A stretch of DNA of 43,575 bases from a bacterium. GTDB taxonomy: Bacteria > Hydrothermota > Tepidihabitantia > Tepidihabitantales > Tepidihabitantaceae. The position numbers and the translations under genes were made by a program. The notes under the pieces were generated by a model. That model had not been told where the DNA came from, searched no databases, and saw only the letters and a list, made by a program, of their open reading frames with translations. The stretch covers positions 1 to 43,575 of the forward strand of contig JAWOIB010000114.1 of assembly GCA_046484845.1 (NCBI GenBank), read 5' to 3'. Below, piece by piece: positions 12,431 through 42,608 of the stretch. How positions within the stretch are numbered: the stretch's first letter is position 1; the number at the start of each line of letters is the position of its first letter.

Positions 12431-12547
12431 TCAGTCTCCGTCCTTGAAGCGCACGAGGACCGCCCAGAGGATGCTGGCGACCGCGGCGGCCGCGACCGCG
12501 ATAATGGCGGAGAAGGTCAGCCACGGACAGCCGAAGGGTCCAGCCAC
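12431..12547 (-). CDS. unannotated 38-aa single-TM small ORF, candidate symporter small accessory subunit
   Basis: My own translation is (GTG)MAGPFGCPWLTFSAIIAVAAAAVASILWAVLVRFKDGD*. Its stop lies 3 nt before the symporter start. The GTG sits exactly 6 nt after a TAACAT -10 box of a TTGACA-N16 promoter, the same geometry seen at other genes here. The ORF is below the ORF-track length cutoff. Confidence 0.5.
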   Translation of the reverse strand: MAGPFGCPWLTFSAIIAVAAAAVASILWAVLVRFKDGD

Positions 12548-12553
12548 GCTGCG

Positions 12554-12581
12554 ATGTTAGCGGGCGAAGGGTTGATGTCAA
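12554..12581 (-). promoter_or_regulatory. promoter TTGACA-N16-TAACAT; GTG of the 38-aa ORF lies 6 nt after the -10 box (leaderless geometry)
   Basis: The reverse complement of 12576..12581 is TTGACA, and the reverse complement of 12554..12559 is TAACAT. The GTG is at 12547. Confidence 0.5.
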
Positions 12582-12598
12582 CGCCCGGCCGGGGCCGG

Positions 12599-13675
12599 TC
12601 AGTGCCGGGCGACCTGCTTGACCGCGACCGCGCCGCCGACGAACGCGCCGATGTAGAAGCTGAACAGCCGCCAGAGGACGACGAACACCCCGAGCATGTG
12701 GCGCGGGCAGAGCATCGCGTACAGCCCGGCCGCGCCCGCCTCGGCCACCCCGCCCGCGCCCGGGGTCGGGATGTAGAGCAGGATCGCGACGAGCAGGTTG
12801 TTGATGCCGAGCACGCGCGGGACGTCCTCGAACCCGATGACCCCGAGCCCGCCGAGAATCGCGGCGGTCATCCCGAAGTAGGACAGGCCGTAAACAACGG
12901 TCAGCAGCGCGGCGACGAGCAGGTACCAGACGTTCCGGCCGATGAAGTAGAGCTTCAGCCCGTCCGCGAAATGCCGGAACTCGCCGAGGGTGCGGACGAG
13001 CAGCCGGCGCAGCCGGCCGGGCTCCGGCTTCGCCGCCAGCCGGTCGCGCCAGCGGGCGACGATCGCCGGGAAGAACAGCGTCAGCACCACGAACGCGGTG
13101 CCGCCGGCGATGATGACCCCGATGTAGGTGCCCAGCACCTTGAGCAGGACGGAGCTGATGTTCAGCCGGGTGGCGATGAACGGCGCGGCCGCGAACACCA
13201 TCCCGTAGAACAGGATGCCGCGGGCGAGCAGCATCGCCGAGGCCTTGCCGGGCGAGATGCCCCACCGGTTCATGGCGTAGAGCTGGAGCGGCAGGCCGCC
13301 GACTTGGAACGGGGTGATGGCGGCCATGAAATACCCGACGAGGATGATCTCCGCGGAGCGGATGATCCCGAGCCGGTGCTCGCCCGCCCGGGAGAGTACC
13401 GCCAGCCGCAGGCCGTCCACCCCGGTCGCGACCAGCCAGAGCAGGCCGGTCAGCAGCAGCCAGTGCGGCTTGAGCCGGGCGAGGTCAGCGAGCGTCTCCC
13501 GGCTGACGGTCACCGCCATCACCACCACCGCGGCCACCACGCCGATGAGCACGAATAGCCGGATGCCGCGCCGGATGTTGCGCGCGCGCAGCCGCTCGCG
13601 GACTTCCTCCTCGGTGGCGGGGCGGGTTTCGACCGGGGGCGGCAGTCCCTGCCCGGCGCGTGCTGGCTCGGTCAT
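12599..13675 (-). CDS. UPF0104 / lysylphosphatidylglycerol-synthase-TM-region (flippase-like) family membrane protein
   Basis: The 358-aa protein has about 8 TM segments. Family-like blocks include FMAAITPFQVGGLPLQLY and PTPGAGGVAEAG. Confidence 0.75.
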   Translation of the reverse strand: MTEPARAGQGLPPPVETRPATEEEVRERLRARNIRRGIRLFVLIGVVAAVVVMAVTVSRETLADLARLKPHWLLLTGLLWLVATGVDGLRLAVLSRAGEHRLGIIRSAEIILVGYFMAAITPFQVGGLPLQLYAMNRWGISPGKASAMLLARGILFYGMVFAAAPFIATRLNISSVLLKVLGTYIGVIIAGGTAFVVLTLFFPAIVARWRDRLAAKPEPGRLRRLLVRTLGEFRHFADGLKLYFIGRNVWYLLVAALLTVVYGLSYFGMTAAILGGLGVIGFEDVPRVLGINNLLVAILLYIPTPGAGGVAEAGAAGLYAMLCPRHMLGVFVVLWRLFSFYIGAFVGGAVAVKQVARH

Positions 13676-13684
13676 AGCTCGGTG

Positions 13685-13712
13685 ATGTTAGGGTTCGCGA
13701 CGCGTGAGTCAA
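13685..13712 (-). promoter_or_regulatory. promoter TTGACT-N16-TAACAT; ATG 13675 lies 9 nt after the -10 box
   Basis: The hexamers are the reverse complements of 13707..13712 and 13685..13690. Confidence 0.5.
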
Positions 13713-13721
13713 GCGAGGGCG

Positions 13722-13749
13722 TTGACTTCGCCGGTCGGCCGGGTATTAC
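13722..13749 (+). promoter_or_regulatory. promoter TTGACT-N16-TATTAC; GTG 13756 lies 6 nt after the -10 box (leaderless geometry)
   Basis: Read directly from the sequence. It lies back-to-back with the divergent promoter at 13685..13712. Confidence 0.5.
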
Positions 13750-13755
13750 TTCAGG

Positions 13756-14244
13756 GTGAGACCATCAATACTGCTCGCGACCGCGCTGCTGCTGGCGGTG
13801 GGCTGCGCCCCGCGGCTGGAGCCGGTCGGGGTTGACTTCCAGAACCTGCGGCTCGACGGCTTCGAACGCGGCGAGTTGGACCTGCTGATTACCAACCCCA
13901 ACCGGGTCGCAGTGGACATCGAGGCGATGCGCTACTCGCTGGCGCTGGGCCGGGACACGGTCGCGCTGGGCGAGCGGCAGGTGCCGCTCCGGGTGCCGGC
14001 CGGGGACACGGTGACCGCAACGTTCGGGTTCGAATTCCGATTCGAGCTCGACGGCATCTTCAACCGGCTGGGCGCGCTGCTCGACGATACGCTCCAGTTC
14101 GAGCTGGACGGTCGTTACTCGGTGCCGGGGCTGTTCGGACCCAGGCGCTGGCCGTTTCGCTACCGGCACGAGCTTCCGCTGCGGGCGGAGGTCGAGAAAC
14201 TGCTCGGGCCGCTCCGGTCGCTGTTCGGCGGAGAGGGTCGGTGA
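13756..14244 (+). CDS. LEA_2 / WHy (NDR1/HIN1-like) domain lipoprotein
   Basis: The lipoprotein signal is MRPSILLATALLLAVGC. The remainder is a beta-sandwich-like sequence (LDLLITNPNRVAVDIEAMRYSLALGRDTVA...VPAGDTVT) typical of LEA14/WHy domains. Confidence 0.65.
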   Translation: MRPSILLATALLLAVGCAPRLEPVGVDFQNLRLDGFERGELDLLITNPNRVAVDIEAMRYSLALGRDTVALGERQVPLRVPAGDTVTATFGFEFRFELDGIFNRLGALLDDTLQFELDGRYSVPGLFGPRRWPFRYRHELPLRAEVEKLLGPLRSLFGGEGR

Positions 14245-15602: not shown

Positions 15603-16775
15603 TCAGGTCTTGCAGTCGGAGGGCGGGGCGGTAAGCGCGGCCGGGTCCGCGGCCCGGGCGACGAACCGGTCCACTTCTTCCTCGGTGTTGTAGTAGTGCG
15701 GGGCAACTCGGAGCAGGTTCTCGCGCAGGGCGCAAACGAAACCGCCCGCCCGGAGCCAGGCGTGGATTGAGGCGTTGCAGGCGCCGGGTTTGCGGCAGGT
15801 GGTGAAGCAGCCGGAGCGTTCCGGCTCGGCCGGGGTGACGATTTCGAACCCGGCCGCGGCCAGCCCGGCGTGGAGCCGACGGTTGAGCGCGCGCAGGCGG
15901 GCCTCGATGGCGGCGATGCCGTCCTGTTCCCAGAGGTCGAGGCTGGCGTTGAGCCCGGCGATGCCGAGGTAGTTCTTGGTGCCGGCCTCGAACCGGGCGG
16001 CACCGGGTTTGAGGGGCTTGGCCGAGAAGATTTCGTTGAATTCGCGCCAGTCGGCCGAGAGCCAGCCGAGGTGCGCCGGGCGCAGGCCGGGCAGGGTGTC
16101 CGGCCGGACGTGGAGCATGCCCGAGCCCTGCGGGGAGAGCAGCCACTTGGCGCCGTGGCCGATGACGAAGTCGGCATCCACCGCGCGCCAGTCGCAGTCC
16201 ACCGCGCCGATGCCCTGGATGGCGTCGATGACCGAGACGACCCCGCGCTCGCGGCAGTGGCGGGCGATCGCCGTGACGTCGAACCGGCGGGCGGTGAGAA
16301 AATGGACCCAGGAGACCGCGACCAGCCGGGTGCGCTCGTCGACCAGCGAGCAGGCCGCGTCCGGGCCCTCGACCAGCGCCGCGGAGGTGACGAATCGTTG
16401 CTCTACCTGCGGCAGCAGGAACCGGAACGGGGCGGTGACGGTCGGGAAGTCGTCCGCCATCAGCACGACGTTGTCCCCGGGATGCCATTCTATCGAGCCG
16501 ATGGCGATGAGCAGGCCGGCGGTGGTGGAGCCGGTAAACGCGACCGAGTCGGGCGGAGCGTGGAGCAGGCGGGCGAGCTTCTGCCGGCAGGTCTCCGCAA
16601 CCGCCTCGGCTTCGGGGTAGGGGTACTCGCCGTCGCGGGCGGCGCGGTCCGCGAAATCCGCGACCGCCTGTACCGTGGGCGCGGGCAGCGGGCCGGTGCC
16701 GGCGTGGTTGAACCAGGTCCAGCGCTCGGTGACCGGGAACAGCCGGCGGAGGGCGGCGAGGCGATTGGAGTCCAT
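15603..16775 (-). CDS. class V aminotransferase (cysteine desulfurase / SufS-CsdA-like fold), PLP-dependent
   Basis: Class V motifs are present: FNHAGTGPLP, VSVIDAIQGIG, and the PLP-Lys context GHGAKWLLSPQGSG. I prefer the start at ATG 16775 (MDSNRL), which lies 7 nt after a GATAAT -10 box. The ORF-track start is 16793. Confidence 0.8.
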   Translation of the reverse strand: MDSNRLAALRRLFPVTERWTWFNHAGTGPLPAPTVQAVADFADRAARDGEYPYPEAEAVAETCRQKLARLLHAPPDSVAFTGSTTAGLLIAIGSIEWHPGDNVVLMADDFPTVTAPFRFLLPQVEQRFVTSAALVEGPDAACSLVDERTRLVAVSWVHFLTARRFDVTAIARHCRERGVVSVIDAIQGIGAVDCDWRAVDADFVIGHGAKWLLSPQGSGMLHVRPDTLPGLRPAHLGWLSADWREFNEIFSAKPLKPGAARFEAGTKNYLGIAGLNASLDLWEQDGIAAIEARLRALNRRLHAGLAAAGFEIVTPAEPERSGCFTTCRKPGACNASIHAWLRAGGFVCALRENLLRVAPHYYNTEEEVDRFVARAADPAALTAPPSDCKT

Positions 16776-16782
16776 CGGGCTG

Positions 16783-16810
16783 ATTATCCGCACCGGCCGG
16801 GAGGATGCAA
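16783..16810 (-). promoter_or_regulatory. promoter TTGCAT-N16-GATAAT; ATG 16775 lies 7 nt after the -10 box (leaderless geometry)
   Basis: The hexamers are the reverse complements of 16805..16810 and 16783..16788. Confidence 0.5.
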
Positions 16811-16815: not shown

Positions 16816-16843
16816 TTGAATCCGCGGCCGGCGCTGGTAGTAT
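16816..16843 (+). promoter_or_regulatory. promoter TTGAAT-N16-TAGTAT; ATG 16850 lies 6 nt after the -10 box (leaderless geometry)
   Basis: Read directly from the sequence. It is divergent from the promoter at 16783..16810. Confidence 0.5.
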
Positions 16844-16849
16844 CTACTC

Positions 16850-18325
16850 ATGCATAGGACGATAGCAGTATTCTTCTTCGCGCTGGCGGTGGCGACCGGG
16901 ACCGGGCACCGGCTCGGGCTGGTTCCCGAAGACCTGGATACGATTCCCTGGGTGCGCAGGGTGGAACAGGTGCCGGTCGCGGACGGGAAGCTCCCGGCCG
17001 GGGACCTGGTCCGGGTGGACCATTCCCCGGACATGCCGCCGATCGGCAACCAGGGCGCGCAGGGTTCCTGCGTGGCCTGGGCGCACGGGTATAATCACAT
17101 GACCCACAACGAGTTCGTGGAGCGGGGCTGGAACGTCCGGGACCCGCACCACCAGTTCAGCCCGGCGTTCCTCTACAACCAGGTGAACGGCGGCCGGGAC
17201 TGGGGCACGAGCGGCAGCGTGGTGATGCGGCTGGCGATCGAGCAGGGCTGCGCGAGCATCGTGGACCATCCCTACAACCAGTATGACTATACGACCTGGC
17301 CGAGCGAGTCGGCGTACTTCAACGCGCTCTGGTTCCGGGGGGAGGAGGCCTGCTTCATCCACGCCCGCGATACCGCGGGCATCAACCTGGTGCGCCAGCA
17401 CCTCGCCAACGGCTACACCTGCGTGATCGGCATCGCGGTCTGGTCGAACTTCGACAACATCCGCAACTTCCGCAATATCTATTCTTCGAGCGAGCGCTAC
17501 GGCACGATGCGCGGCTGGCACGCGGTGACGATCGTCGGTTACGACGATACGCTGACGACCGCGGACGGGCCGGGCGCGTTCCGGGTCGCCAATTCCTGGG
17601 GCACCGGCTGGGGCGACGCGGGCTGGTTCTGGATGACCTACGCGGCGGTGATGGACCAGGAGATGAGCGGCCGACAGGTTGAGTTCATCCGAGACTTGGT
17701 CGGTTACGAGCCGAGGATGGTGGGCCGGGTGACCATCTCCCACCCGACCCGGGACCGGGTCGGCATCGAACTGGGCGTGGCGCCGATACCGATGCCGCCC
17801 TGGTTCTTTGAGTACCGGGCCTGGCGACCGACCGGCATCGACCGCCCGTTCCCGGACCACCCGATCGTGTTCGATATGACCGGGGGCGCGGATTTCCTCA
17901 CCGGCGGGGGCGATGATTGGCTGTACCTGGGGGCGTGGGACGATATCAACGACGGCGCGACCGGGTCAATCACCGGTTTCGCAGTCGACCACCTGGAATG
18001 GGGCACGCGGGCGGTGTCCTTCGAAACCCCGGTGCCGATACCGGACGGAGCCGGGCCGGTGTTCGTGACCGCGCAGTTGCCGGCGAGCGGCGCGGCAGAG
18101 GATCCCGGGGCGGGAATTCCGGGGCGCGTCTTGCGTCTGCCGTCGGTCAGCCGCGGCACGCTGCTGCTGCCCGCCGACCAGCGTGCCGGGGCCACCCTGC
18201 GCGACGCCTCCGGCCGGAAGGTGATGGAGCTTCAGCCGGGCGAGAACGACGTCACCCGGCTCGCGCCGGGCGTGTATTTCGTGCGCACTGCGCCGGGCGT
18301 CCACCGGGTCGTGGTCCTGCGGTAG
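16850..18325 (+). CDS. secreted papain-family (C1) cysteine peptidase with a P-domain-like module and a T9SS-type C-terminal sorting domain
   Basis: A signal peptide is present. The catalytic triad contexts are Cys in NQGAQGSCVAWA, His in GWHAVTIVGYDD, and Asn in NSWGTGWGDAGW. The C-terminus (GVYFVRTAPGVHRVVVLR) is typical of T9SS/FlgD-Ig tails. Confidence 0.9.
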   Translation: MHRTIAVFFFALAVATGTGHRLGLVPEDLDTIPWVRRVEQVPVADGKLPAGDLVRVDHSPDMPPIGNQGAQGSCVAWAHGYNHMTHNEFVERGWNVRDPHHQFSPAFLYNQVNGGRDWGTSGSVVMRLAIEQGCASIVDHPYNQYDYTTWPSESAYFNALWFRGEEACFIHARDTAGINLVRQHLANGYTCVIGIAVWSNFDNIRNFRNIYSSSERYGTMRGWHAVTIVGYDDTLTTADGPGAFRVANSWGTGWGDAGWFWMTYAAVMDQEMSGRQVEFIRDLVGYEPRMVGRVTISHPTRDRVGIELGVAPIPMPPWFFEYRAWRPTGIDRPFPDHPIVFDMTGGADFLTGGGDDWLYLGAWDDINDGATGSITGFAVDHLEWGTRAVSFETPVPIPDGAGPVFVTAQLPASGAAEDPGAGIPGRVLRLPSVSRGTLLLPADQRAGATLRDASGRKVMELQPGENDVTRLAPGVYFVRTAPGVHRVVVLR

Positions 18326-18341: not shown

Positions 18342-18369
18342 TTGACCGGGACAAGCGCCGGACTATAAT
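18342..18369 (+). promoter_or_regulatory. promoter TTGACC-N16-TATAAT upstream of the lipoprotein gene (about 75-nt leader)
   Basis: Read directly from the sequence. Confidence 0.55.
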
Positions 18370-18450
18370 CCCGAAGCCTGACCAAGGCCGCCGCTGGCCG
18401 GGTCGGTCCAGCTTCAGCGGCATGGCCGGGCTGTCAGTAAAGGAGGCATA

Positions 18451-19161
18451 GTGGTGAAGAAGATGCTCGTCTCGGTGGTTCTGTCGGTGATGGTGTTCAG
18501 CCTCGTCGGCTGTGACAAGCCCACCAAACTCATCGGCACGCTGATCCTGCAGACCGGGCAGACCGGCGATGTCCAGAACGCGAAGGTCCAGCTGTTCTTG
18601 TCGTCCGACCTGACCGGCAACCCGGTGAAGGAAGTGGCCTCGATGTCCGCAGGCAACGCGTCCCGGTCCCAGTTCGAGTTCGTTGACGTGCTGCCGGGCT
18701 ACTACTACCTGTTGGCCTGGAAGGACCTTAACGGCGACGGCCAGCTGAGCGATCGTGATATCGTCGGTATTCACGGCGGCACTTATCTTCCCGGGCACGG
18801 CGGTACCCAGGTGACGGTGTCGGAGGGCAAGACCTCCGATGTCGGCGATGTCGTGATGATGATCTACAAGGAGCTGAAGACGACCGCCGGCGGCACCCGG
18901 GCGCAAGGTGGGGTTGTCACCAACTTCAGCTATTCGTTCAACTACGACCTGACCCTGAGTTCGCTGACCATCACGTTCCCGGGTTTCGACCCGATCACCG
19001 ACCCGGACGCGCCGGGCGCCAAGACCGCGGGAGTGACTTACACTTCCGAGGGCTGGAACACCGGCGGCGGGCAGATGCCGACCGGCGACCATCTCCTGCG
19101 GTTCCAGGGAACCTGGGAAGGCGCCGCTTTCGATATCACGGTTACGGTCAGCGTCAACTGA
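18451..19161 (+). CDS. hypothetical lipoprotein
   Basis: An AGGAGG Shine-Dalgarno sequence lies at 18441..18446, followed by GTG GTG. The signal and lipobox read VKKMLVSVVLSVMVFSLVGC. I recognise no protein family. Confidence 0.65.
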   Translation: MVKKMLVSVVLSVMVFSLVGCDKPTKLIGTLILQTGQTGDVQNAKVQLFLSSDLTGNPVKEVASMSAGNASRSQFEFVDVLPGYYYLLAWKDLNGDGQLSDRDIVGIHGGTYLPGHGGTQVTVSEGKTSDVGDVVMMIYKELKTTAGGTRAQGGVVTNFSYSFNYDLTLSSLTITFPGFDPITDPDAPGAKTAGVTYTSEGWNTGGGQMPTGDHLLRFQGTWEGAAFDITVTVSVN

Positions 19162-21527: not shown

Positions 21528-23525
21528 CTACTCGAAGATGAGCTTACGGGTCTCGGTTACGCCGCCGGCGGTGAGCCGGACCAGGTAGGCTCCGGCGGCC
21601 AGCCCGCGGACCTCGGCCGAGTAATGACCGGCCGTCCGTCGGCCGGAGGCGAGGGTGCGGACGAGCCGGCCGGTGACGTCGTGGACCGCGAGCGTGACGT
21701 CCCGGGCTTGGGGCAGGCTGTAGCGCACCACGGACCGGCCCCGGGCCGGGTTGGGCGCGGGCGCGTGCAGGACCGGCCGCGTCACGCCGACCTCGGGCGA
21801 GAGCTGCTGTTCGATGCCGCTGGTGATGCTGACCTTGTGGAGGAGCCACTTGCCCGGGTCGAAGACGATGCCGACCGGCCGGGCCCGGAGCGGGAAGGCG
21901 TCGCGCTGGGGATTGGCCTCGATGCCCCAGTGCAGGAGCGTATCGCCGCCGCCTTCGAGGTTGACCAGCACCTCGACCGGGGTGCGGAAGAAGTCCGGGG
22001 CCTGCGGGCCGTTGTCCTGGCCGACGTCTATGACCACCTCCCAGCCGTCCGCGGTTTCGCGCGGAAACCAGTTGACGGTGTAGTTGGGGAAGCCGGCCTG
22101 GAACACCCACTCGTCGTAGAACCAGCCGATGTCCCCGAGCCAGCGTTCCTGGATGGCCTGGCGCTCATAGGTAGTGCCGGTGCCGTAGGCGAAGCTGTCG
22201 GCCCAGGCGCGCTCGGATTCAAACCAGGTGCCCGGGCTGTCGAAGATGGTGTCGCCGTGCAGGTACCGGGTCATGTGGTTGACCCAGGCCGCCTTGCAGT
22301 AGGTATGCCCCCAGTCGAACATCCGGGACAGGCCCGGGTCGTAGAGCGGACGGCGGAAGCTGGCGTCGGACTGGAAGTAGGCGGTGGCGTAGTCCGCCAT
22401 CCGGGTCTCGAAGGCCGCAGCGCCGTAGTAGTGGTGGAACCAGAGCGGGTCGAGGTAGGTGGCCGAGCCTTCGTTGAGCCAGATTTCCCGCCAGTCCTGG
22501 CAGGTGATGTAGTCGCCGAACCACATATGGGCGAGCTCGTGAGCGATGCCCCATTCCGATGCGTTGAGCACCCACGCGCGGTGCACCGTCGTCATAGTCT
22601 GGTGCTCCATCCCGCCGAAGCTGAACGGGAAGACCGCGACGTGGCCGTATTTCTCTTCCGGGAACGGGTAGGGACCGAACCGGTCCGGCCGCGAAAAGAA
22701 CTCAATCATGTCCGGCACATTCCGGTAGGCCTGGTTTCGGGCGGCCGTGTCCTCAGGCCAGACGTAATTGTAAACCGGTATCGAGTCACCGCCGCCGATA
22801 TGCGCATGCTGAACTTGGGCGACATAGCTGCTCGCCGCGAAGTTGATGAGGTAGGTCGAGACCGGGTAACGGTGGGTCCACCAGAAGGTCCTCTTTCCGC
22901 CCCGGGTCGTGACGCTGTCGAGCAGGCCGGGCGCGCAGGCGACGAAGCTGTCGGGTACGGTGACGCTGACCATGCAGCCGGCCTCGGCCTTGTCCCAGGG
23001 ATGGTCCCAGCCGGGGAACCAGTAGCGCGAGTCGTTGGGCTGGGTAATCGAGTAGGCCACGGAATGGAGCCGCTGCTGGCCCGGGTCCTTTGCGTACCAG
23101 TAGAAGCCGCGGTTGCTCGTGCCCGCGTTGCGGCGGTAGAAGACGTCGATTGTGACCGAGTCGCCTTCGGGCACCGGCGGGTCGGGGAAGACATTGAGGA
23201 ACTGGTAGGACTCGACGAAACGCAGGTGGTCGTTGCCGAGCTTGACCGAGTCGCAGGTCAGGTTGGCGAAATCCAGGAAAATGCTGTCGAGCGCGGGCCG
23301 GTTGCTCCGGAGCCGGATTGCGCAGCGGGCGGTCATCGAGCCATCGGTCATCGGCAGGTCCATGTCTATCCGGTAGTGGCGGACATCGTAACTGTGGGAG
23401 GATTCCGCCGCGATGGCGGGAGGGGTGAGGCCGGGCAGGTGCCACTTGGCCTCGTAGGTCTCCGGCCCGGGTATGTGGCCCGGGGCCGCGGCCGCGAGCA
23501 GGGCCAGGATGACGAGCGTTTTCAT
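21528..23525 (-). CDS. secreted M1-family zinc metallopeptidase (aminopeptidase N-like) with a T9SS-type C-terminal domain
   Basis: The motifs are GGMEHQ (a GxMEN variant), HELAHMWFG, and WLNEG for the zinc site. The start is ATG 23525 (MKTLVILALLAAAAPG), preceded by a GGAGG Shine-Dalgarno sequence. The C-terminus reads GAYLVRLTAGGVTETRKLIFE. Confidence 0.9.
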   Translation of the reverse strand: MKTLVILALLAAAAPGHIPGPETYEAKWHLPGLTPPAIAAESSHSYDVRHYRIDMDLPMTDGSMTARCAIRLRSNRPALDSIFLDFANLTCDSVKLGNDHLRFVESYQFLNVFPDPPVPEGDSVTIDVFYRRNAGTSNRGFYWYAKDPGQQRLHSVAYSITQPNDSRYWFPGWDHPWDKAEAGCMVSVTVPDSFVACAPGLLDSVTTRGGKRTFWWTHRYPVSTYLINFAASSYVAQVQHAHIGGGDSIPVYNYVWPEDTAARNQAYRNVPDMIEFFSRPDRFGPYPFPEEKYGHVAVFPFSFGGMEHQTMTTVHRAWVLNASEWGIAHELAHMWFGDYITCQDWREIWLNEGSATYLDPLWFHHYYGAAAFETRMADYATAYFQSDASFRRPLYDPGLSRMFDWGHTYCKAAWVNHMTRYLHGDTIFDSPGTWFESERAWADSFAYGTGTTYERQAIQERWLGDIGWFYDEWVFQAGFPNYTVNWFPRETADGWEVVIDVGQDNGPQAPDFFRTPVEVLVNLEGGGDTLLHWGIEANPQRDAFPLRARPVGIVFDPGKWLLHKVSITSGIEQQLSPEVGVTRPVLHAPAPNPARGRSVVRYSLPQARDVTLAVHDVTGRLVRTLASGRRTAGHYSAEVRGLAAGAYLVRLTAGGVTETRKLIFE

Positions 23526-23584
23526 CAGGTAACCTCCGTGGTGTTCGTCCGGACAGCGGGCGCGAGACATGAGACATTATAGCC

Positions 23585-23613
23585 CGGCCGGACGGGCATG
23601 CCAGAGGCGGCGT
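23585..23613 (-). promoter_or_regulatory. promoter CTGGCA-N17-TATAAT upstream of the M1 peptidase gene (about 50-nt leader with GGAGG SD)
   Basis: The reverse complement of 23585..23590 is TATAAT. The -35 hexamer matches the consensus at only 4 of 6 positions. Confidence 0.4.
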
Positions 23614-25582: not shown

Positions 25583-25588
25583 CAGGAG

Positions 25589-25616
25589 ATTGTACCCGAC
25601 CCGGGGAGCCGCACAA
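25589..25616 (-). promoter_or_regulatory. promoter TTGTGC-N16-TACAAT; ATG 25582 lies 6 nt after the -10 box (leaderless geometry)
   Basis: The hexamers are the reverse complements of 25611..25616 and 25589..25594. The -35 hexamer is weak. Confidence 0.45.
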
Positions 25617-25640: not shown

Positions 25641-25668
25641 TGGACAGCCCCGGGCTGGGCGCTATAAT
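25641..25668 (+). promoter_or_regulatory. promoter TGGACA-N16-TATAAT for the mvhD/flx-like operon (23-nt leader)
   Basis: Read directly from the sequence. It is divergent from the promoter at 25589..25616. Confidence 0.55.
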
Positions 25669-25691
25669 CCCTGTCCCTACGGTGACTGCTG

Positions 25692-28868: not shown

Positions 28869-29981
28869 GTGACTGACGAAGAATTCTTCGAGTCATTGCT
28901 GGCCGAGTGCATCAAGGTTAATGCTTCGGACCTGCACATTACTGTCGGTCGTCCACCCACGCTGCGTGTCGACGGTTTCCTGAAGCCGATCGCGGGTTGC
29001 CCGGTGCTGACCCCGGAGATGACCGAGCGGTTCAAGAACATCGCGACCAAGGACGTTAAGCACCTCCGGGCCCAGATCGATAACGGCGGCGGCGGCGACT
29101 TCGCGTTGTCCTTCCGCAACATGGCTCGGTTCCGGGTGGCGGTCTACAAGCAGAAGGGCTACTTCGGTCTTGCGCTCCGGCTCATCCCGCGGAGGATCCT
29201 GAGTTTCGAAGAGCTGTTCGTGTCGCAACACATGATTCCCCGGATCAAGAGCCTGCTCGACCGCCCGCACGGCCTGGTGCTGGTTACCGGCCCGACCGGG
29301 ATGGGCAAGACGACGACCCAGGCAACTTTCGTGGACTACATCCTGGAGAGTCCCCGCCACGTGCTGACCATCGAGGACCCGGTCGAGTTCGTCCACGACC
29401 ACAAGAATGGCCTCATCACCCAGCGCGAAGTCGGCGTTGACGTGTCGTCGTTCCGCGAGGCGATCATGAAGGGTCTGCGCTCGAACCCGAACGTTATTCT
29501 CGTGGCCGAGATTCGAGACCTTGCCACCGCCGAGGCCACGATCTGGGCTGCGGAATCGGGCCACTTGGTCATTGGTACCCTGCACACGACCAACGCCTCG
29601 GAAACCGTGACCCGGTTCATCGACATCTTCCCGCCCGAAATCCGTGACCAGATCAGGATCCAGTTCTCAATCTCTTTGCTGGCGGTTTTCTGCCAGCGGC
29701 TGCTGGTGAAGGCCGGCGGCAAGGGCAGGGTCGGCGTGTACGAGGTGATGGTCGCGACGCCGGCGGTGCGCAACCTGATTCGCGAGCGGAAGGTGGAACA
29801 CCTGCCCTCGGCGATCCAGACCGGCACCTCCGAGGGCAGCATCTCTTTCGATGCCTACATGGCCGATCTCTACCGGGCGGGCAAAGTCACCTACGAGACC
29901 GCCATTGCCTCCTCGATGGACCCGAAGGGTTTCCGCGAGCTCATCGAGTACGGCGCGAGCAAGCCCGGCAAGCACAAGTAG
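28869..29981 (+). CDS. pilT: type IV pilus retraction (twitching motility) ATPase PilT
   Basis: The sequence contains ASDLHITVGRPPTLRVDG, Walker A GPTGMGKTT, the Asp box ITIEDPVEF, Walker B NVILVAEIRD, and the His box GHLVIGTLHT. The N-terminal length fits the GTG 28869 start. Confidence 0.9.
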   Translation: MTDEEFFESLLAECIKVNASDLHITVGRPPTLRVDGFLKPIAGCPVLTPEMTERFKNIATKDVKHLRAQIDNGGGGDFALSFRNMARFRVAVYKQKGYFGLALRLIPRRILSFEELFVSQHMIPRIKSLLDRPHGLVLVTGPTGMGKTTTQATFVDYILESPRHVLTIEDPVEFVHDHKNGLITQREVGVDVSSFREAIMKGLRSNPNVILVAEIRDLATAEATIWAAESGHLVIGTLHTTNASETVTRFIDIFPPEIRDQIRIQFSISLLAVFCQRLLVKAGGKGRVGVYEVMVATPAVRNLIRERKVEHLPSAIQTGTSEGSISFDAYMADLYRAGKVTYETAIASSMDPKGFRELIEYGASKPGKHK

Positions 29982-32001: not shown

Positions 32002-34644
32002 CTAGAGGGACTCCAGCTGGCGTTTCAACCGGGCAAGACGGTCCTTCATCTCGGCCTGGCGGGCGCGCTCGTTTTCGACGACCTCCGGCCGGGCCCGGGC
32101 GGCGAATTCGGGGTTGGCGAACTTGGCGTCAATGCCGGCCAGCGCCTGGCGCAGGTTCGCGAGCTCCCTGCCGATGCGGGTCGCTTCCTGTTCGAGGTCC
32201 ACGATGCCTTCAAGCGGGACATAGAGTTCTGCCCCGGCGATGACCGCCAGCGAGGATTTCGCCGGGCGGTCGCCGGGCGGCCCGCAGTCGAGCCGGCTCA
32301 CCCGGGCCATCGTCCGCACCAGTCCGGCGCCGGCATCGAGGAAGGCGAGCAGGCCGGTGTCCGCGCTCCTGACCAGGCAGGTGATTTCGGCCTTCGCGGG
32401 CACCCGCATTTCCGAGCGGATGTTCCGCACCGCGCTGACGAGCTCGCGCAGGGCCTCGACCCGGGCGACCTCCGCGGTATTGCAGGCGAGCGGGCCCGGC
32501 CAGCTGGAGGACAGGATTGAGCGGGAGGCCGCATCGCCCGCCGCCGGCCCGTAGCCGAGTTTCTGCCAGAGTTCTTCGGTGATGAAGGGCATCAGCGGGT
32601 GCAGGAGCTGGAGCGTGCCCCGGAACAGTTCGCGGACGGTCGCGGTTGCGGCCGGGTCGCCCGCGCGCAGGCGGGCCTTGGCGAACTCGAGGTACCAGTC
32701 GCAGAGGTCGTGCCGGAAGAAGTCGTAGAGCGCGGCGGCGACCTGCGAGAAGGCGTAGCGGTCGAAGCCGTCGTCGACCCGCGCCAGCAGTTCATTGAAT
32801 CGGTGCTTTATCCAGTTGTCGACCGGGTCCGGCGGCGCGTCACCGGCCGCGGCCGCGGCCACCTGCGGCGCGACCAGCCGGCAGGCGTTCCAGATTTTGT
32901 TGGCGAAGTTGCGGCCCAGCTCGAAGCGTTCGTTCCAGAGCCGGTAGCTCTGGGACTGGCTTTCGAGGTAGCAGATGGTGAACCGGGCGGCGTCGGTGCC
33001 GTATTCGTCGAAGATGACGAGCGGGTCCACCCCGATGCCCTTGGAACGGCTCATCCGGGCGCCGGTCTTGTCGAGCACCGTCGAGTGAATGTAGACGTCC
33101 CGGAAGGGCACCGTGCCGGTGAACTCGAGCGCCGAGAATATCATCCGGGCTTCCCAGCGGAAGATGATGTCCGGGTCGGTGGTCAGGAAGTCAGTCGGAT
33201 AGAATTTGCGGTAGTCCGGGGTGTCCCCCGGCCAGCCCATCGTCGAGAAGGGCCAGAGGGCGGAACTGAACCAGGTGTCGAGCACGTCTTCGTCCTGGCG
33301 AAGCTGTGTGGAGCCGCATTCGGGGCAGGCCGCCGGGGTGTCCCGGCTGACGATGACCTCGCCGCAGGCGCAGTACCAGACGGGTATCCGGTGGCCCCAC
33401 CAGAGCTGGCGGGAGATGCACCAGTCGCGGATGTTTTTCATCCAGTCGAGGTAGACCTTGTTCCAGCGCTCGGGGTGGAAGCGGACCCGGCCGTCTTCAA
33501 CCGCCTTGATGGCCGGCTCGGCCAGCGGCTGCATCCGCACCCACCACTGCATCGAGGCCAGCGGCTCGATGGTTTCTTCGCAGCGGTCGCAGGTACCGAC
33601 CGCGTGCCGGTAGGGCTCGACCTTTTCGAGCAGGCCGGCCGCTTCGAGGTCCGCGACTACCTCCCGGCGGCAGTCTTCGCGGCTCATCCCGCGGTACTTT
33701 TCCGGGACGGCGTCGGTCATCTTCGCGTCGTCGCCGATGACGGTGACGCGCTCGAGCTTGTGCCGCTCGCCGATTTCGAAGTCCACCGGGTCGTGGGCCG
33801 GGGTGACCTTGACCGCGCCGGTGCCGAACCCGGCCTCGACCGCGCCGTCGGCAACGACCGGGATTTCCCGGCCGGTCAGCGGCAGCGAGAGCCGCCGGCC
33901 GACGAACCCGCGGAACCGCTCGTCGTCCGGGTTCACCGCCACCGCGGTGTCGCCGAGCATGGTCTCAGGCCGGGTGGTCGCGACGGTCAGGTGGCGCGAA
34001 GGGTCGCCGGCCAGCGGGTAGCGGATGTACCAGAGCGAGGTATCCTCTTCCCTGAACTTCACCTCGAGGTCGGAGACCGCGGTGCCGCAGCGCGGGCACC
34101 AGTTGACGATGCGCAGGCCACGGTAAACCAGGCCCTTCTCGTGGTAGCGGACAAACGCCTCCCGCACCGCCCGGGACAGCCCTTGGTCGAGGGTGAAGCG
34201 CAGCCGGGTCCAGTCCAGGCAGCAGCCCAGCCCGCGCAGCTGGTTGATTATCTCCCCGCCGTAGCGTTCCTTCCACTGCCAGGCCCGCTTGAGAAACTCT
34301 TCCCGGCCGATGTCGAACCTGGTCTTGCCTTCCTGCGCCAGCATCCGCTCGACCTTGACCTGCGTGCCGATGCCGGCGTGGTCGGTGCCGGGCAGCCAGA
34401 GCGTTTCGAACCCCTGCATCCGCTTGCGCCGGATGAGCATGTCCGGCAGGCCGTTGTCGAGCGCGTGGCCCATGTGCAGGGAGCCGGTCACGTTCGGCGG
34501 CGGGATGACGATTGAGTACTTCGGCTTCGGCGACGCCGCGTCAGCGGTGAAGAACCCGCTGTCTTCCCAGAACTTATACCACTTCGCCTCGACCGGGCCG
34601 GGGTCGTAGCGGGTCGGGAACGTATGCGCGGGGGTATCTACCAT
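32002..34644 (-). CDS. valS: valine--tRNA ligase
   Basis: The 880-aa product contains PPPNVTGSLHMGHA (HIGH region), RMSRSKG (KMSKS region), an editing domain, and the C-terminal coiled coil typical of ValRS. Confidence 0.95.
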   Translation of the reverse strand: MVDTPAHTFPTRYDPGPVEAKWYKFWEDSGFFTADAASPKPKYSIVIPPPNVTGSLHMGHALDNGLPDMLIRRKRMQGFETLWLPGTDHAGIGTQVKVERMLAQEGKTRFDIGREEFLKRAWQWKERYGGEIINQLRGLGCCLDWTRLRFTLDQGLSRAVREAFVRYHEKGLVYRGLRIVNWCPRCGTAVSDLEVKFREEDTSLWYIRYPLAGDPSRHLTVATTRPETMLGDTAVAVNPDDERFRGFVGRRLSLPLTGREIPVVADGAVEAGFGTGAVKVTPAHDPVDFEIGERHKLERVTVIGDDAKMTDAVPEKYRGMSREDCRREVVADLEAAGLLEKVEPYRHAVGTCDRCEETIEPLASMQWWVRMQPLAEPAIKAVEDGRVRFHPERWNKVYLDWMKNIRDWCISRQLWWGHRIPVWYCACGEVIVSRDTPAACPECGSTQLRQDEDVLDTWFSSALWPFSTMGWPGDTPDYRKFYPTDFLTTDPDIIFRWEARMIFSALEFTGTVPFRDVYIHSTVLDKTGARMSRSKGIGVDPLVIFDEYGTDAARFTICYLESQSQSYRLWNERFELGRNFANKIWNACRLVAPQVAAAAAGDAPPDPVDNWIKHRFNELLARVDDGFDRYAFSQVAAALYDFFRHDLCDWYLEFAKARLRAGDPAATATVRELFRGTLQLLHPLMPFITEELWQKLGYGPAAGDAASRSILSSSWPGPLACNTAEVARVEALRELVSAVRNIRSEMRVPAKAEITCLVRSADTGLLAFLDAGAGLVRTMARVSRLDCGPPGDRPAKSSLAVIAGAELYVPLEGIVDLEQEATRIGRELANLRQALAGIDAKFANPEFAARARPEVVENERARQAEMKDRLARLKRQLESL

Positions 34645-34652
34645 GTCGCGAG

Positions 34653-34680
34653 ATTATAGGATGGCGCGATACCCTGTCAA
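34653..34680 (-). promoter_or_regulatory. consensus promoter TTGACA-N16-TATAAT; valS ATG 34644 lies 8 nt after the -10 box (leaderless geometry)
   Basis: The reverse complement of 34675..34680 is TTGACA, which contains the TGA stop of the upstream DedA-like gene. The reverse complement of 34653..34658 is TATAAT. Confidence 0.6.
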
Positions 34681-35435
34681 TGCGGCTCCCGGCCGACGCC
34701 GCTCCAGCGCTCGAGCAGTTGCGTTACCCGGCGCCGGAAGCGGAGGTAGAGCAGGACCGCGACCAGCGCCGCCGCGCCCAGCAGCAGCCATTCCAACCAT
34801 CCGAACCGGGTCGCACCACTACCCAGCCCGCATTCGAGCAGGCTGGTCGGCAGCCGGGCGAGGAACACAACCGTAAGGAACAGCGGCAGGGGCAGGGCGG
34901 TCAGCCCGGCGATGTAATAAGCAAGGTCTCCGACCGGGTTGGGAATAAGTATCAGCAGGAACACGTAGAATGCCCCGCGCCGGATGACCATGCGGTCGAG
35001 CTGCGCGAGCCGGTCGGCCGATACGAAGAAGCGCAGCAGCCGCCGGCCCAGGATTCGCGCCAGCAGGAAATTGATGGTGGCGCCGAGCATGATGCCGACC
35101 ATCAGCCAGGCGATGCCGGGCCAGAAGCCGTAGGCGTACCCGACCGCGAACGACAGCGGGTGCCCGGGCAGGGGCGCGAGCAATATCTGGAGGACCTGGA
35201 AGCCGATGATGCCGAGCGGGGCCCAGGCGCCCCAGCCGGCCACGAGCGCGCGCAGTTCCGCCGGGCGGCGGAACAGGTGCCAGAGTTGCCGGCCGTAGAG
35301 CAGGAGCAGGGTGATGGCCGCGGCGACGAGCAACCCGGTCAGCACGGCGGATACAACCGCGCCTTTGGGCCTGTCGCCCGGTCCGCCCCCGGCGGCGGGG
35401 GCGTCGGGGTGGTCGGCGCTGTCGGGACCAGCCAT
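34677..35435 (-). CDS. TVP38/TMEM64 (DedA/SNARE-associated) family membrane protein
   Basis: Multiple TM segments are present. Family-like blocks include LLAPLPGHPLSFAVGYAYGFWPG and IPNPVGDLAYYIAGLT. I prefer the start at ATG 35435; the ORF-track start is 35483. Confidence 0.75.
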   Translation of the reverse strand: MAGPDSADHPDAPAAGGGPGDRPKGAVVSAVLTGLLVAAAITLLLLYGRQLWHLFRRPAELRALVAGWGAWAPLGIIGFQVLQILLAPLPGHPLSFAVGYAYGFWPGIAWLMVGIMLGATINFLLARILGRRLLRFFVSADRLAQLDRMVIRRGAFYVFLLILIPNPVGDLAYYIAGLTALPLPLFLTVVFLARLPTSLLECGLGSGATRFGWLEWLLLGAAALVAVLLYLRFRRRVTQLLERWSGVGREPH

Positions 35436-35443
35436 CAGGCTCA

Positions 35444-35471
35444 AGGATATTGAGCCGGCCCGGGAAGTAAA
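35444..35471 (-). promoter_or_regulatory. promoter TTTACT-N16-TATCCT; ATG 35435 lies 8 nt after the -10 box
   Basis: The hexamers are the reverse complements of 35466..35471 and 35444..35449. Both are weaker matches to consensus. Confidence 0.35.
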
Positions 35472-40953: not shown

Positions 40954-41505
40954 TCAGCCCGGGCGGACGATGTCGGCGAAGACGGTGAGCAGGTCTCGGT
41001 CGAGGACCCGGCTGAACTCGCCGAGCCAGTGCTCGATGTACCGGCGGTCGTATCCCGGGTTGCGTGCGAGGACCATGCGCGCGTCTTCCAGGTCGCGCAG
41101 CCGTCCCGCCACCAGCTTGTGGACGACCAGGTCCTCCATGCCGGCAAAGTGCACGTCGGCGCCCCCCAGCCTCACCGTGCGGCTCCGGCTGATTGCCTGC
41201 CGTTCATAGCCGGTCGTGGAGAAGATGAAGTCAACCCTGATGCCGGTTTCCGGCTCCTGGGCCGGCAGGACCATCGTCTCGGGAACGAAGCTGTCCGGGT
41301 TCTCGACGAGAGGGGAAAGCCCGGTCTTCCGGCAGACACCGAGTACCCGGCCGAATTCCTCCGGGCCGATGCCCAGGGTCAGGTCAATGTCCCGGGTCAG
41401 CCGCGGCTCGCCATACACCAGCACCGCCTGTCCGCCGACGACCATGTAGGGGATTCCGGACCCGGTCAGCGCGCGGTCGAGCCGGGCGAGCAGGGACTCA
41501 AACAC
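40954..41505 (-). CDS. Pol-beta-superfamily nucleotidyltransferase (DUF6036/MNT-like)
   Basis: The NTase motif hGG-x(n)-DhDh is present in YMVVGGQAVLVYGEPRLTRDIDLTL. The proposed GTG start at 41505 overlaps the end of the upstream small ORF by 8 nt. The ORF-track start is 41550. Confidence 0.6.
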   Translation of the reverse strand: MFESLLARLDRALTGSGIPYMVVGGQAVLVYGEPRLTRDIDLTLGIGPEEFGRVLGVCRKTGLSPLVENPDSFVPETMVLPAQEPETGIRVDFIFSTTGYERQAISRSRTVRLGGADVHFAGMEDLVVHKLVAGRLRDLEDARMVLARNPGYDRRYIEHWLGEFSRVLDRDLLTVFADIVRPG

Positions 41506-41695
41506 TGTTGATGTCGCGGGCGAGACGGACAACCGCTTCGATGCCCTCAAGCGGGTCCTGACGCCGGACTACGCCGAGCGCCAGCGCCTCACTCCACAGC
41601 GCTTCGAAGATGCGGAGGTTCCGGAGCAGGTCAGGCGGGGACTTACGAGCCTGCTCCAGCTCGAACCGCTCCAGCGTTTCCGTGTTCCTGACCAC
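41498..41695 (-). CDS. 65-aa helical protein, putative partner (antitoxin-like) of the downstream nucleotidyltransferase
   Basis: The ORF-track protein is MVRNTETLERFELEQARKSPPDLLRNLRIFEALWSEALALG.... Its GTG lies exactly 6 nt after a GATACT -10 box of a TTGACT-N16 promoter. The gene is translationally coupled to the NTase gene. Confidence 0.5.
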   Translation of the reverse strand: MVRNTETLERFELEQARKSPPDLLRNLRIFEALWSEALALGVVRRQDPLEGIEAVVRLARDINSV

Positions 41696-41701
41696 GACTA
41701 G

Positions 41702-41729
41702 AGTATCACCTCGCCCCGCGGAAAGTCAA
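41702..41729 (-). promoter_or_regulatory. promoter TTGACT-N16-GATACT; GTG 41695 lies 6 nt after the -10 box (leaderless geometry)
   Basis: The hexamers are the reverse complements of 41724..41729 and 41702..41707. Confidence 0.5.
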
Positions 41730-41769
41730 CCCCATGACCCGCCCGGCACGTGCACTCCCGCCGCTCGCC

Positions 41770-42261
41770 TCACTCCCCGAACTCCAGCAACGTCTGCCCG
41801 CCGCTTGCCTCCCGCGCCACCTCATCATCACCCTGCACCCGGCCGTCGGCCCGGACATGCCGCACCTCGACCCCAAGCCGCACGAGCGCCGGGGTAACCA
41901 GCGACCGCCGGTGACACCGCGCCGGGTTCTCCTCCCCGCAGACCACGGCGACTATCCGCTCCGCGGCCAGCCCGGCCAGTTGCTCGATGCCCTGCCGGAA
42001 CTCCGGCAGTCGGGCGACCCGGTCGAAAGACAGCGGCGGCTCCCGCTTCCCGCCCAGCTCCCGGCCCAGGTACAGATACTCGATTCCCGCCCGCACCAGC
42101 GCGGCGGCCAGCGCCTCCCGGTTGAACTGCGGGGCGTGGCGCGAATACGGCGCGGACCGCACATCTACGACCAGCGTGACCGACCGCTCCCGCAACAGCG
42201 CGAGGAACCGCTCAAGCGGCAGGTTCGAATGGCCGATGGTGAGGACGCTCCGTCCGCTCAC
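41770..42261 (-). CDS. DUF488 family protein
   Basis: The sequence LTIGHSNLPLERFLALL....V..VVDVRS.P.SR..PQFN...L...L...GI.Y..LG.ELGG...C.E..P..CHR matches the DUF488 pattern. Confidence 0.85.
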   Translation of the reverse strand: MSGRSVLTIGHSNLPLERFLALLRERSVTLVVDVRSAPYSRHAPQFNREALAAALVRAGIEYLYLGRELGGKREPPLSFDRVARLPEFRQGIEQLAGLAAERIVAVVCGEENPARCHRRSLVTPALVRLGVEVRHVRADGRVQGDDEVAREASGGQTLLEFGE

Positions 42262-42267
42262 GCCGGG

Positions 42268-42296
42268 ATTCTAAAGTTCCCGCCCGCGCCTGTCCA
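42268..42296 (-). promoter_or_regulatory. promoter TGGACA-N17-TAGAAT; DUF488 GTG 42261 lies 6 nt after the -10 box (leaderless geometry)
   Basis: The hexamers are the reverse complements of 42291..42296 and 42268..42273. Confidence 0.5.
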
Positions 42297-42330
42297 GCCC
42301 GGCTGTGCTGGTCGGAACCTTCGTCCCTTC

Positions 42331-42359
42331 TTGACTTCCCCGGTTCCCGGGGCCACAAT
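42331..42359 (+). promoter_or_regulatory. promoter TTGACT-N17-CACAAT; hicB ATG 42366 lies 6 nt after the -10 box (leaderless geometry)
   Basis: Read directly from the sequence. Confidence 0.45.
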
Positions 42360-42365
42360 TGCCCG

Positions 42366-42608
42366 ATGCTGACCGACTATATCACCGCCGCGATGCACCG
42401 CGCGCGCTACGAAATCCTGCCCGACGACAAGTCGTTCTACGGCGAGATACCGGGATTTGAGGGTGTCTATGTGAACGCCGCAGACCTCGAAACCTGCCGC
42501 GAAGAGCTCGAAAGCACACTCGAAGACTGGATCCTGTTCCGCGTATCGCGCGGGCTCGACCTGCCGGTTGTTGACGGGCTCAAGCTCGAAGTAGTCGAAG
42601 TCGCCTGA
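42366..42608 (+). CDS. hicB: HicB-like (UPF0150) antitoxin-family protein
   Basis: The 80-aa product reads MLTDYITAAMHRARYEILPDDKSFYGEIPGFEGVYVNAADLETCREELESTLEDWI. This is the HicB N-terminal domain pattern, with no DNA-binding extension. Confidence 0.7.
   Translation: MLTDYITAAMHRARYEILPDDKSFYGEIPGFEGVYVNAADLETCREELESTLEDWILFRVSRGLDLPVVDGLKLEVVEVA

Follow-up and report, generated by a model that had tools for sequence, protein, structure and literature searches.

Promoter-to-start geometry in the window

The 43,575-nt stretch analysed here (the window) raised the question of whether many of its transcription units begin at promoters placed so close to the start codon that their mRNAs would be leaderless. 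The initial annotation had described thirteen such starts but listed twelve, and at all 12 of these the proposed geometry, with a -35 box, a spacer of 16–17 nt, a -10 box and a gap of 6–9 nt before an ATG or GTG, was reproduced. The sites were the following:

12545..12581, minus strand: promoter of a 38-aa membrane peptide gene (12431..12547), TTGACA (12576-12581)-16-TAACAT (12554-12559)-6-GTG 12547
13673..13712, minus strand: promoter of an LPG_synthase_TM/UPF0104 gene, TTGACT-16-TAACAT-9-ATG 13675
13722..13758, plus strand: promoter of a LEA_2 lipoprotein gene, TTGACT-16-TATTAC-6-GTG 13756
16773..16810, minus strand: promoter of a class-V aminotransferase gene, TTGCAT-16-GATAAT-7-ATG 16775
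16816..16852, plus strand: promoter of a C1 peptidase gene, TTGAAT-16-TAGTAT-6-ATG 16850
25580..25616, minus strand: promoter of a secreted LVIVD/thioredoxin-like protein gene, TTGTGC-16-TACAAT-6-ATG 25582
28835..28871, plus strand: pilT promoter, TTGACA-16-TATAAT-6-GTG 28869
34642..34680, minus strand: valS promoter, TTGACA-16-TATAAT-8-ATG 34644
35433..35471, minus strand: promoter of a DedA/VTT-domain membrane protein gene, TTTACT-16-TATCCT-8-ATG 35435
41693..41729, minus strand: promoter of a 65-aa ORF (41498..41695), TTGACT-16-GATACT-6-GTG 41695
42259..42296, minus strand: promoter of a DUF488 gene, TGGACA-17-TAGAAT-6-GTG 42261
42331..42368, plus strand: promoter of a hicB-like (UPF0150) gene, TTGACT-17-CACAAT-6-ATG 42366

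The spacer was 16 nt long at 10 sites and 17 nt at two (DUF488 and hicB), and the -10 box lies 6 nt ahead of the start at eight sites, 7 nt at one, 8 nt at two and 9 nt at one; sites with a gap of 8–9 nt may have a leader of 1–3 nt rather than zero. The description of the hexamers as near-consensus held for some sites only: the -35 boxes TTGCAT (aminotransferase) and TTGTGC (LVIVD/thioredoxin-like protein) match TTGACA at just three of six positions, CACAAT, GATACT and TATCCT match TATAAT at four, and the weak -10 box of LEA_2, TATTAC, is without the final T. Both boxes of the DedA/VTT gene are weak, and five of the 12 promoters, with boxes matching at 3 or 4 of 6 positions, would fail a stringent scan.

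The earlier statement that these starts are without a Shine-Dalgarno (SD) sequence was borne out, as none fits into the gap between the -10 box and the start at any of the 12. For nine of the starts the open frame holds no earlier start codon, and at eight an in-frame stop lies 12–33 nt upstream, within the promoter. ATG 13675 (UPF0104), ATG 16850 (C1 peptidase) and GTG 42261 (DUF488) are each the earliest start in frame, with a stop 15, 12 and 12 nt upstream, respectively, while an in-frame GTG is also present six codons upstream of the aminotransferase ATG 16775. Independent support from signal peptides and family N-termini had also been claimed, and the Pfam families were confirmed, with domain matches beginning near the proposed N-termini (at residue 4 for the hicB-like protein); ATG 25582 is followed by a signal peptide and GTG 13756 by a lipoprotein signal (LLAVGC).

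The promoter at GTG 12547 heads both the 38-aa peptide gene and a downstream Na+/solute symporter gene, and the -35 box of valS shares bases with the stop codon that ends the DedA-like gene upstream. Both divergent sets reported previously, aminotransferase/C1 peptidase (74-nt intergenic region) and DUF488/hicB, indeed have back-to-back promoters, and the same arrangement was found for UPF0104/LEA_2 within an 80-nt intergenic region. The 65-aa ORF, with no match in Pfam or NCBIfam, is the least certain gene of the list because an ORF on the plus strand overlaps it.

Leadered genes and the Shine-Dalgarno class

Against the 12 predicted leaderless units, the window holds about seven recognisable leadered promoters. 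Three further sites were compared:

18342..18453, plus strand: leadered control, TTGACC-16-TATAAT, leader of ∼75–80 nt with AAGGAGG, then GTG 18451
25641..25694, plus strand: flpD/mvhD-like gene, short-leader exception, TGGACA-16-TATAAT, 23 nt before ATG 25692, without an SD sequence
23523..23604, minus strand: M1 peptidase gene, counter-example, CTGGCA-17-TATAAT, 5 nt before ATG 23570

The claim that all genes with longer leaders carry an SD sequence held at 7674, 10766, 18451, 23525, 35539/35542 and 40880, and failed at flpD (25692). For the M1 peptidase, a GGAGG followed by ATG 23525 leads into the signal peptide MKTLVILALL, in agreement with its previous placement in the SD class. Judged from these features, its mRNA probably has a 45-nt SD-bearing leader, and ATG 23570 is unlikely to be the true start. 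This gene fits an alternative reading in which the promoters are real, yet the adjacent ATG or GTG is incidental, translation starts from a downstream codon, and what look like N-termini belong to the 5′ UTR of leadered mRNAs. Since ATG 23570 is probably unused for translation, some fraction of the leaderless-register class would be coincidental. As a general account the reading is unlikely: in the 12 listed cases no SD-like core was found in the 16 nt before the next in-frame start, and signal peptides and Pfam domains start right at the proposed codons.

Genome-wide, GGAGG peaked 4–7 nt upstream of a distinct set of starts, and at no start were both signals found together. The 16S rRNA ends at its 3′ side in GGATCACCTCCTT, a canonical anti-SD, so that an SD-type ribosome-binding site and its canonical partner (16S 3′ end CACCTCCTT) are kept for other genes. 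Loss of ribosomal protein S1 was ruled out by the presence of a normal six-domain rpsA.

Genome-wide distribution of promoter-to-start distances

Gene models were based on ORF and GC3 heuristics, which required a long ORF downstream whose third codon positions are rich in GC, with no trained gene finder. Out of 788 promoter-like sites in the genome, 569 had such an ORF downstream, and at 195 of these (34%) the first long-ORF start lay 5–9 nt from the -10 box (43, 62, 41, 28, and 21 sites at 5, 6, 7, 8, and 9 nt), with counts of 2–7 at 0–4 nt and about 3–5 per nt past 12 nt. The scan of -10-to-start distances that the initial annotation had proposed therefore returned a sharp 5–9 nt peak, in addition to the separate GGAGG class. 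At the mode of this peak, 6 nt, position +1 would coincide with the first nucleotide of the start codon. With the ORF filter omitted, the peak was 80/107/84/72 at 5–8 nt over a baseline of ∼25; when true starts were approximated by the first start in every stop-to-stop ORF, it was visible and heavily diluted, because high-GC ORFs run upstream of real starts. Divergent-head genes, which require their own promoter, were in the leaderless register in 69 of 374 cases (18%) under a stringent two-box filter, compared with 4–15 at control offsets.

AT-rich intergenic DNA in a genome of 68% GC might mimic promoter boxes near starts by chance or composition, and some enrichment close to the 5′ ends of ORFs was indeed present at control offsets too. 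The -10-only histogram also had a high background of in-gene TANNNT with a 3-nt periodicity, from which an excess of ∼180 emerged, in agreement with the two-box count. Such an artefact is nevertheless hardly credible given that the positional peak is limited to 5–9 nt and that TTGACN-16/17-TANNNT-5..8-RTG had 230 matches forward vs 1 for the reversed pattern. The same motif in E. coli K-12 gave 17 matches vs 21 reversed, with no peak, and the ratios in external genomes were just 1.1–1.7. Positions 12000-31999 of the window held 7 promoter-like sites vs 1.3 ± 1.1 in shuffles, and relatives of 31–44% GC keep the geometry.

The two boxes were coupled. Of the TANNNT boxes 5–9 nt before a good start, 49% were accompanied by a -35 box, vs 17% of those at 20–40 nt, and the excess of about 200 TANNNT boxes was essentially all two-box. 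Since a -35 box accompanies nearly every -10 box of this excess, they are best read as promoters and not as ribosome-binding sites. This bears on the proposal that the AT-rich box is a non-SD translation signal on a longer mRNA rather than a -10 element, which would resemble group B of GeneMarkS-2, where bacteria of the FCB group have AT-rich ribosome-binding motifs of a non-SD kind about as far from the start (Lomsadze et al., 2018, PMC6028130). The proposal is very improbable here: the box is TATAAT-like and tied to TTGACA at a fixed 16–17 nt, the two-box motif also lies upstream of SD-bearing leaders in the same window, at 20–140 nt, and the genome has a canonical anti-SD together with a clear GGAGG class.

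Start codons in the leaderless register were biased (ATG 133, GTG 58, and TTG 4, or 2%, n = 195). Incidental codons ahead of a downstream start would give neither this exclusion of TTG nor the sharp 5–9 nt peak. Moreover, only 22 of the 195 starts were followed within 30 codons by an in-frame start that has an SD sequence ahead of it, vs 16 in a within-ORF control.

Conservation in related genomes

The geometry was conserved at orthologous loci, and its elements are of the sigma-70 type, for which a TTGACA-like -35 box, a spacer of 16–18 nt and a TATAAT-like -10 box are characteristic. It was found at valS in 21 of the 23 relatives compared, at protein identities as low as 51%, and at pilT in all 16 same-family genomes, with exchange of GTG and ATG. 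The 38-aa peptide (xGPFGCPWLTF..IWA) and its promoter geometry were kept in 13/13 relatives; neither this ORF nor the AbrB-region ORFs had Pfam or NCBIfam matches, and the peptide was validated through this conservation of orthologues. At all three loci the geometry persisted though spacers and GC content diverged, and the residues right after the proposed start were conserved, as in the (M/V)(T/S)DEEFF N-terminus of pilT, which again argues against translation from a downstream codon. Among the loci already compared, two of three syntenic orthologues of DedA keep the geometry, a small sample, and syntenic orthologues of UPF0104 and LEA_2 were too few.

The signal was present across the WOR-3 class of this genome and weaker elsewhere in the phylum. 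Same-order WOR-3 genomes of 31–44% GC also had the spacing peak; a promoter threshold of at least 10 of 12 was used for genomes of 31% GC, because a 9-of-12 threshold was swamped by chance matches at that composition.

Predicted mode of initiation

Taken together, we infer that transcription starts at the start codon and that the mRNAs are translated as leaderless, a term used here for a 5′ UTR of 0–5 nt. Widespread leaderless mRNAs of the GeneMarkS-2 group C type are very probably a feature of the whole genome, beyond this window, and the predicted organisation is common to the WOR-3 (Caldifarciminota) order and class of this genome, low-GC members included. At housekeeping (sigma-70-type) promoters, RNA polymerase would start on the purine (A or G) that opens the start codon or 0–3 nt from it, and the resulting mRNAs would have neither a 5′ untranslated region nor an SD sequence. 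By analogy, their 5′-terminal AUG or GUG would be recognised directly by ribosomes. In operon-internal genes and leadered units, a GGAGG ribosome-binding site would pair with the CCUCC tail of 16S rRNA.

No new mechanism is revealed. An uncultured phylum-level lineage, low-GC members included, would join the short list of leaderless-rich bacteria, with clear cases in which one and the same gene is predicted to have turned over between a leaderless and a leadered form. In these genomes, gene callers that assume SD sequences would be expected to misplace starts and miss small genes, such as the conserved 38-aa peptide gene.

Comparison with known leaderless systems

Deinococcus and Actinobacteria are well-known cases of this layout, which would here be extended to WOR-3 by sequence analysis; a literature search found no report pairing "leaderless" with "WOR-3". 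Mycobacterial promoters are generally without a clear -35 consensus, whereas the WOR-3 -35 box is near-consensus and spaced by 16–17 nt. Shared with M. tuberculosis and M. smegmatis is a TANNNT ∼6–8 nt before ATG or GTG, without an SD sequence (Cortes 2013 and Shell 2015, cited in PMC6028130).

In the sections of the GeneMarkS-2 paper that describe group C, which covers Actinobacteria and Deinococcus-Thermus among the RefSeq genomes surveyed, 25–50% of operons are estimated to be leaderless, with a Pribnow box 6–8 nt from operon-first starts and an SD-type site for the rest, and WOR-3 is not named there (Lomsadze et al., 2018, PMC6028130). The WOR-3 genome has the same two classes, its peak lying at 5–9 nt (mode 6), and differs from group C as described there in its strong TTGACA -35 box. 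By one report (bioRxiv 10.1101/2022.07.25.500264), code-11 group C genomes are nearly all GC-rich, unlike the same-order WOR-3 genomes of 31–44% GC that show the peak.

In Deinococcus deserti, 1,174 leaderless mRNAs (60%) were identified, with starts mapped by dRNA-seq and translation demonstrated by proteomics (de Groot et al., 2014, PMC4007540). As in that high-GC genome, the promoter in the high-GC WOR-3 genome would lie directly at an AUG or GUG start in a large share of transcription units, an SD class is kept for other genes, and small peptides would be made from 5′-AUG/GUG transcripts, the 38-aa peptide being a candidate. Unlike D. deserti, the WOR-3 case belongs to an unrelated, uncultured phylum, is read from sequence, and includes low-GC relatives that keep the trait. 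On balance, we lean toward viewing the WOR-3 (Caldifarciminota) class as a third major bacterial lineage, next to Actinobacteria and Deinococcus-Thermus, where a dominant mode of initiation at operon-first genes is leaderless. Unlike in those two lineages, the trait would be kept at both ∼68% and ∼31% GC under the standard code. Genes such as pilT would be leaderless in one family and SD-led in a sister family, and the class would then provide a natural system for how the two initiation modes interconvert.

Promoter-to-start geometry in the window

The promoter-to-start geometry described in the initial annotation was confirmed: in the 50 nt upstream of each start, taken on the correct strand, the assigned hexamers were found at all 12 starts (twelve are listed, not the thirteen counted there). 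The spacer between the boxes was 16 nt at ten sites and 17 nt at two, and the start codon followed the -10 box after 6 nt at eight, 7 nt at one, 8 nt at two and 9 nt at one. The description of the boxes as near-consensus stood except at five of the 12 promoters, which are weaker than that label: the -35 boxes of the aminotransferase and LVIVD genes match at 3 of 6 positions, the -10 boxes of LEA_2 (TATTAC) and hicB (CACAAT) are weak, and DedA is weak in both (TTTACT/TATCCT).

At nine genes the proposed start is the earliest start codon in its frame, an in-frame stop lies 12–33 nt upstream, within the promoter, at eight, and no Shine-Dalgarno (SD)-like core precedes the next in-frame start at any of the 12 genes. 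The gene families were borne out by Pfam, with domain matches that open near the proposed N-termini (at residue 21 in valS, 6 in pilT, 4 in hicB, 16 in DUF488 and 21 in the aminotransferase). The N-terminal support claimed for the starts was also found, signal or lipoprotein peptides following directly after those of LEA_2, C1 peptidase and LVIVD. The -35 hexamer of valS (34675–34680) overlaps the stop codon (34677–34679) of the DedA-like gene upstream. Divergent back-to-back promoters were present as proposed at 16775/16850 and 42261/42366, and also at 13675/13756; in these pairs the intergenic regions of 74–104 nt are almost wholly two promoters. Across the genome, 14 divergent pairs that passed the stringent screen in the leaderless register (-35, 16–17 nt, -10, 5–9 nt, start codon) lie 61–124 nt apart.

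Two small ORFs on opposite strands overlap, both with a coding-like third-position GC (0.78) and neither with a family match; either may be the real gene:
41450–41701, + strand, small ORF
41498–41695, - strand, small ORF

In the window, 12 predicted leaderless units stand against about seven leadered promoters, whose starts are at 7674, 10766, 18451, 23525, 25692, 35539 and 40880. Two loci bear on leader length:
23523–23604, - strand, M1 peptidase
25641–25694, + strand, flpD/mvhD-like gene, first of a four-gene redox operon

At the M1 peptidase gene, ATG 23570 sits 5 nt past a TATAAT box, and 15 codons downstream ATG 23525, led by GGAGG, opens the signal peptide MKTLVILALL; because of this GGAGG-led signal peptide, the gene probably carries a 45-nt leader. 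On that reading ATG 23570 is an incidental codon in the leaderless register; a dual start is the alternative. With the 45-nt leader preferred, some members of the leaderless register would therefore be incidental. The flpD/mvhD-like gene lacks an SD, and its consensus promoter lies 23 nt upstream of the ATG, giving a start of the short-leader, non-SD type.

Genome-wide spacing

The window contig (C83, 43.6 kb) belongs to a 2.2-Mb assembly of 196 contigs, about 97% complete and with 67.7% GC. Its valS shares 74–86% identity with the valS of a MAG that carries the label "candidate division WOR-3", for which the current NCBI phylum name is Caldifarciminota. A normal, six-domain ribosomal protein S1 is present in the genome (G000).

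Seven promoter-like sites occur between positions 12000 and 31999 of the window, against 1.3 ± 1.1 in dinucleotide shuffles. Genome-wide there were 788 two-box promoter-like sites, of which 569 passed an ORF filter (start codon within 200 nt, ORF ≥80 aa, third-position GC ≥0.78). The scan of -10-to-start distances proposed in the initial annotation gave a peak at 5–9 nt. A distance of 6 nt from the -10 box is canonical and makes the first base of the codon position +1. Without the ORF filter the peak remained, with 80, 107, 84 and 72 sites at 5, 6, 7 and 8 nt over a background of about 25.

Table. Spacing between -10 box and start codon at 569 ORF-filtered sites.
Distance (nt), sites
0–4, 2–7 each
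5, 43
6, 62 (mode)
7, 41
8, 28
9, 21
beyond 12, about 3–5 per nt

The pattern TTGACN-16/17-TANNNT-5..8-RTG was also searched, with a gap of 15–18 nt for comparison; its backwards version matched once in G000, against 230 forward matches.

Table. Pattern matches by gap.
Genome, 5–8 nt, 15–18 nt, ratio
G000 (2.2 Mb), 230, 74, 3.1
E. coli K-12 (4.6 Mb), 17 (backwards 21), 16, 1.1
Paenibacillus, 65, 52, 1.25
Geomonas, 49, 33, 1.5
Cohnella, 33, 19, 1.7

A -35 box (≥4/6) accompanied 267 of 541 (49%) TANNNT boxes located 5–9 nt before a good start, a share that fell to 17% for boxes 20–40 nt before the start. Since TANNNT boxes with a -35 partner show an excess (about 200) that accounts for all of the surplus of such boxes (about 170–180), the element 5–9 nt before starts is a two-box promoter. 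The separate SD class that had been claimed was evident as a GGAGG peak 4–7 nt before different starts, with zero starts bearing both signals; the 3' end of the 16S rRNA is GGATCACCTCCTT.

Start codons in the leaderless register were ATG (133), GTG (58) and TTG (4), a bias that fits a purine transcription start together with the AUG or GUG needed for leaderless translation (PMC4007540). The GTG share was 37% at gaps of 5–7 nt and 8% at 8–9 nt (Fisher p = 6e-5), and genome-wide in G000 a purine preference at intermediate positions did not explain this drop.

The stringent screen yielded a net of about 175–200 leaderless-register starts, the register making up 34% of promoter-like sites having a downstream ORF. 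Among divergent-head genes, which need their own promoter, 69 of 374 (18%) passed, against 1–4% at control offsets. Owing to its thresholds on ORF length, third-position GC and box strength, the screen recovered only four of the 12 listed sites, and the actual number of leaderless starts is therefore probably above its figure. The gene models are heuristic.

Conservation in relatives

The motif TTGACN-16/17-TATAAT-5..9-ATG/GTG precedes valS in 21 of 23 relatives, which range from members of the genus to members of the order and whose protein identity goes as low as 51%, with TATACT in place of TATAAT in two relatives; the geometry is missing in two (loci L097 and L100). The spacers have fully diverged, and base composition runs from GC-rich to AT-rich.

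For pilT, compared over loci L106–L128, TTGACA-16/17-TATAAT-6..9 before the start (28835–28871 in the window) is kept in 16/16 genomes of the same family. Some of these genomes start the gene with GTG and others with ATG, while the N-terminus (M/V)(T/S)DEEFF is conserved. Sister families within the order instead have leaders of 35–50 nt with AAGG-type motifs before the gene. To judge from these upstream regions, pilT is one gene turning over between two initiation modes.

The weakest case of the initial annotation was a conserved hydrophobic membrane peptide:
12431–12547, - strand, 38-aa ORF

Its motif, xGPFGCPWLTF...IWA, reads GP(F/L)GCPWLTF...IWA across relatives (loci L130–L141). In 13/13 relatives the ORF lies directly upstream of an SSF-family sodium:solute symporter gene, and every copy (13/13) has the same promoter-to-start geometry. 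Pfam and NCBIfam gave no match for the peptide, which may be a candidate for an undescribed small accessory subunit of the symporter.

Spread across the phylum

Pattern counts at 5–8 nt and 15–18 nt were compared in 100 sampled genomes. For the class of G000 the ratio was 2.4–4.9 in each of the 19 genomes sampled; in other classes it was 0.65–3.0. Over all 101 genomes, G000 counted in, the median was 1.9. Hardly any TTGACN/TANNNT-RTG promoters occur in a few families. The survey suggests that parts of the WOR-3 phylum use another promoter consensus. An ORF-anchored histogram of three genomes of the same order (358 kb, 31–44% GC) placed 47 of 175 sites at 5–9 nt, compared with a background of about 1.8 sites per nt, and a 31% GC genome from another class had only a weak peak.

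The low-match genomes were G032, G048, G053, G058, G063, G073, G078, G088, G093 and G098. In families f21, f23, f25, f28 and f31, TTGACN-16/17-TANNNT plus RTG gave about 5–40 matches, most near the reversed control.

Comparison with known leaderless systems

The leaderless reading of the geometry is supported by the genome-wide peak and by conservation among orthologues, as is the presence of widespread predicted leaderless starts in G000. No paper joining "leaderless" and "WOR-3" turned up in the library searched. Genomes of GeneMarkS-2 group C (PMC6028130) have a Pribnow box 6–8 nt from operon-first starts, SD for the remaining genes and 25–50% leaderless operons, and this group dominates in Actinobacteria and Deinococcus-Thermus. 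In its spacing and its SD class, the arrangement read from the G000 sequence matches that description. Low-GC WOR-3 members would be a modest extension, because code-11 group C genomes are reported to be almost all high GC (bioRxiv 10.1101/2022.07.25.500264). The arrangement also matches that of D. deserti, in which 60% of mRNAs are leaderless, translation starts at AUG or GUG and small peptides are among the leaderless products (PMC4007540), although the D. deserti transcripts were mapped experimentally whereas those of G000 are read from the genome sequence only.
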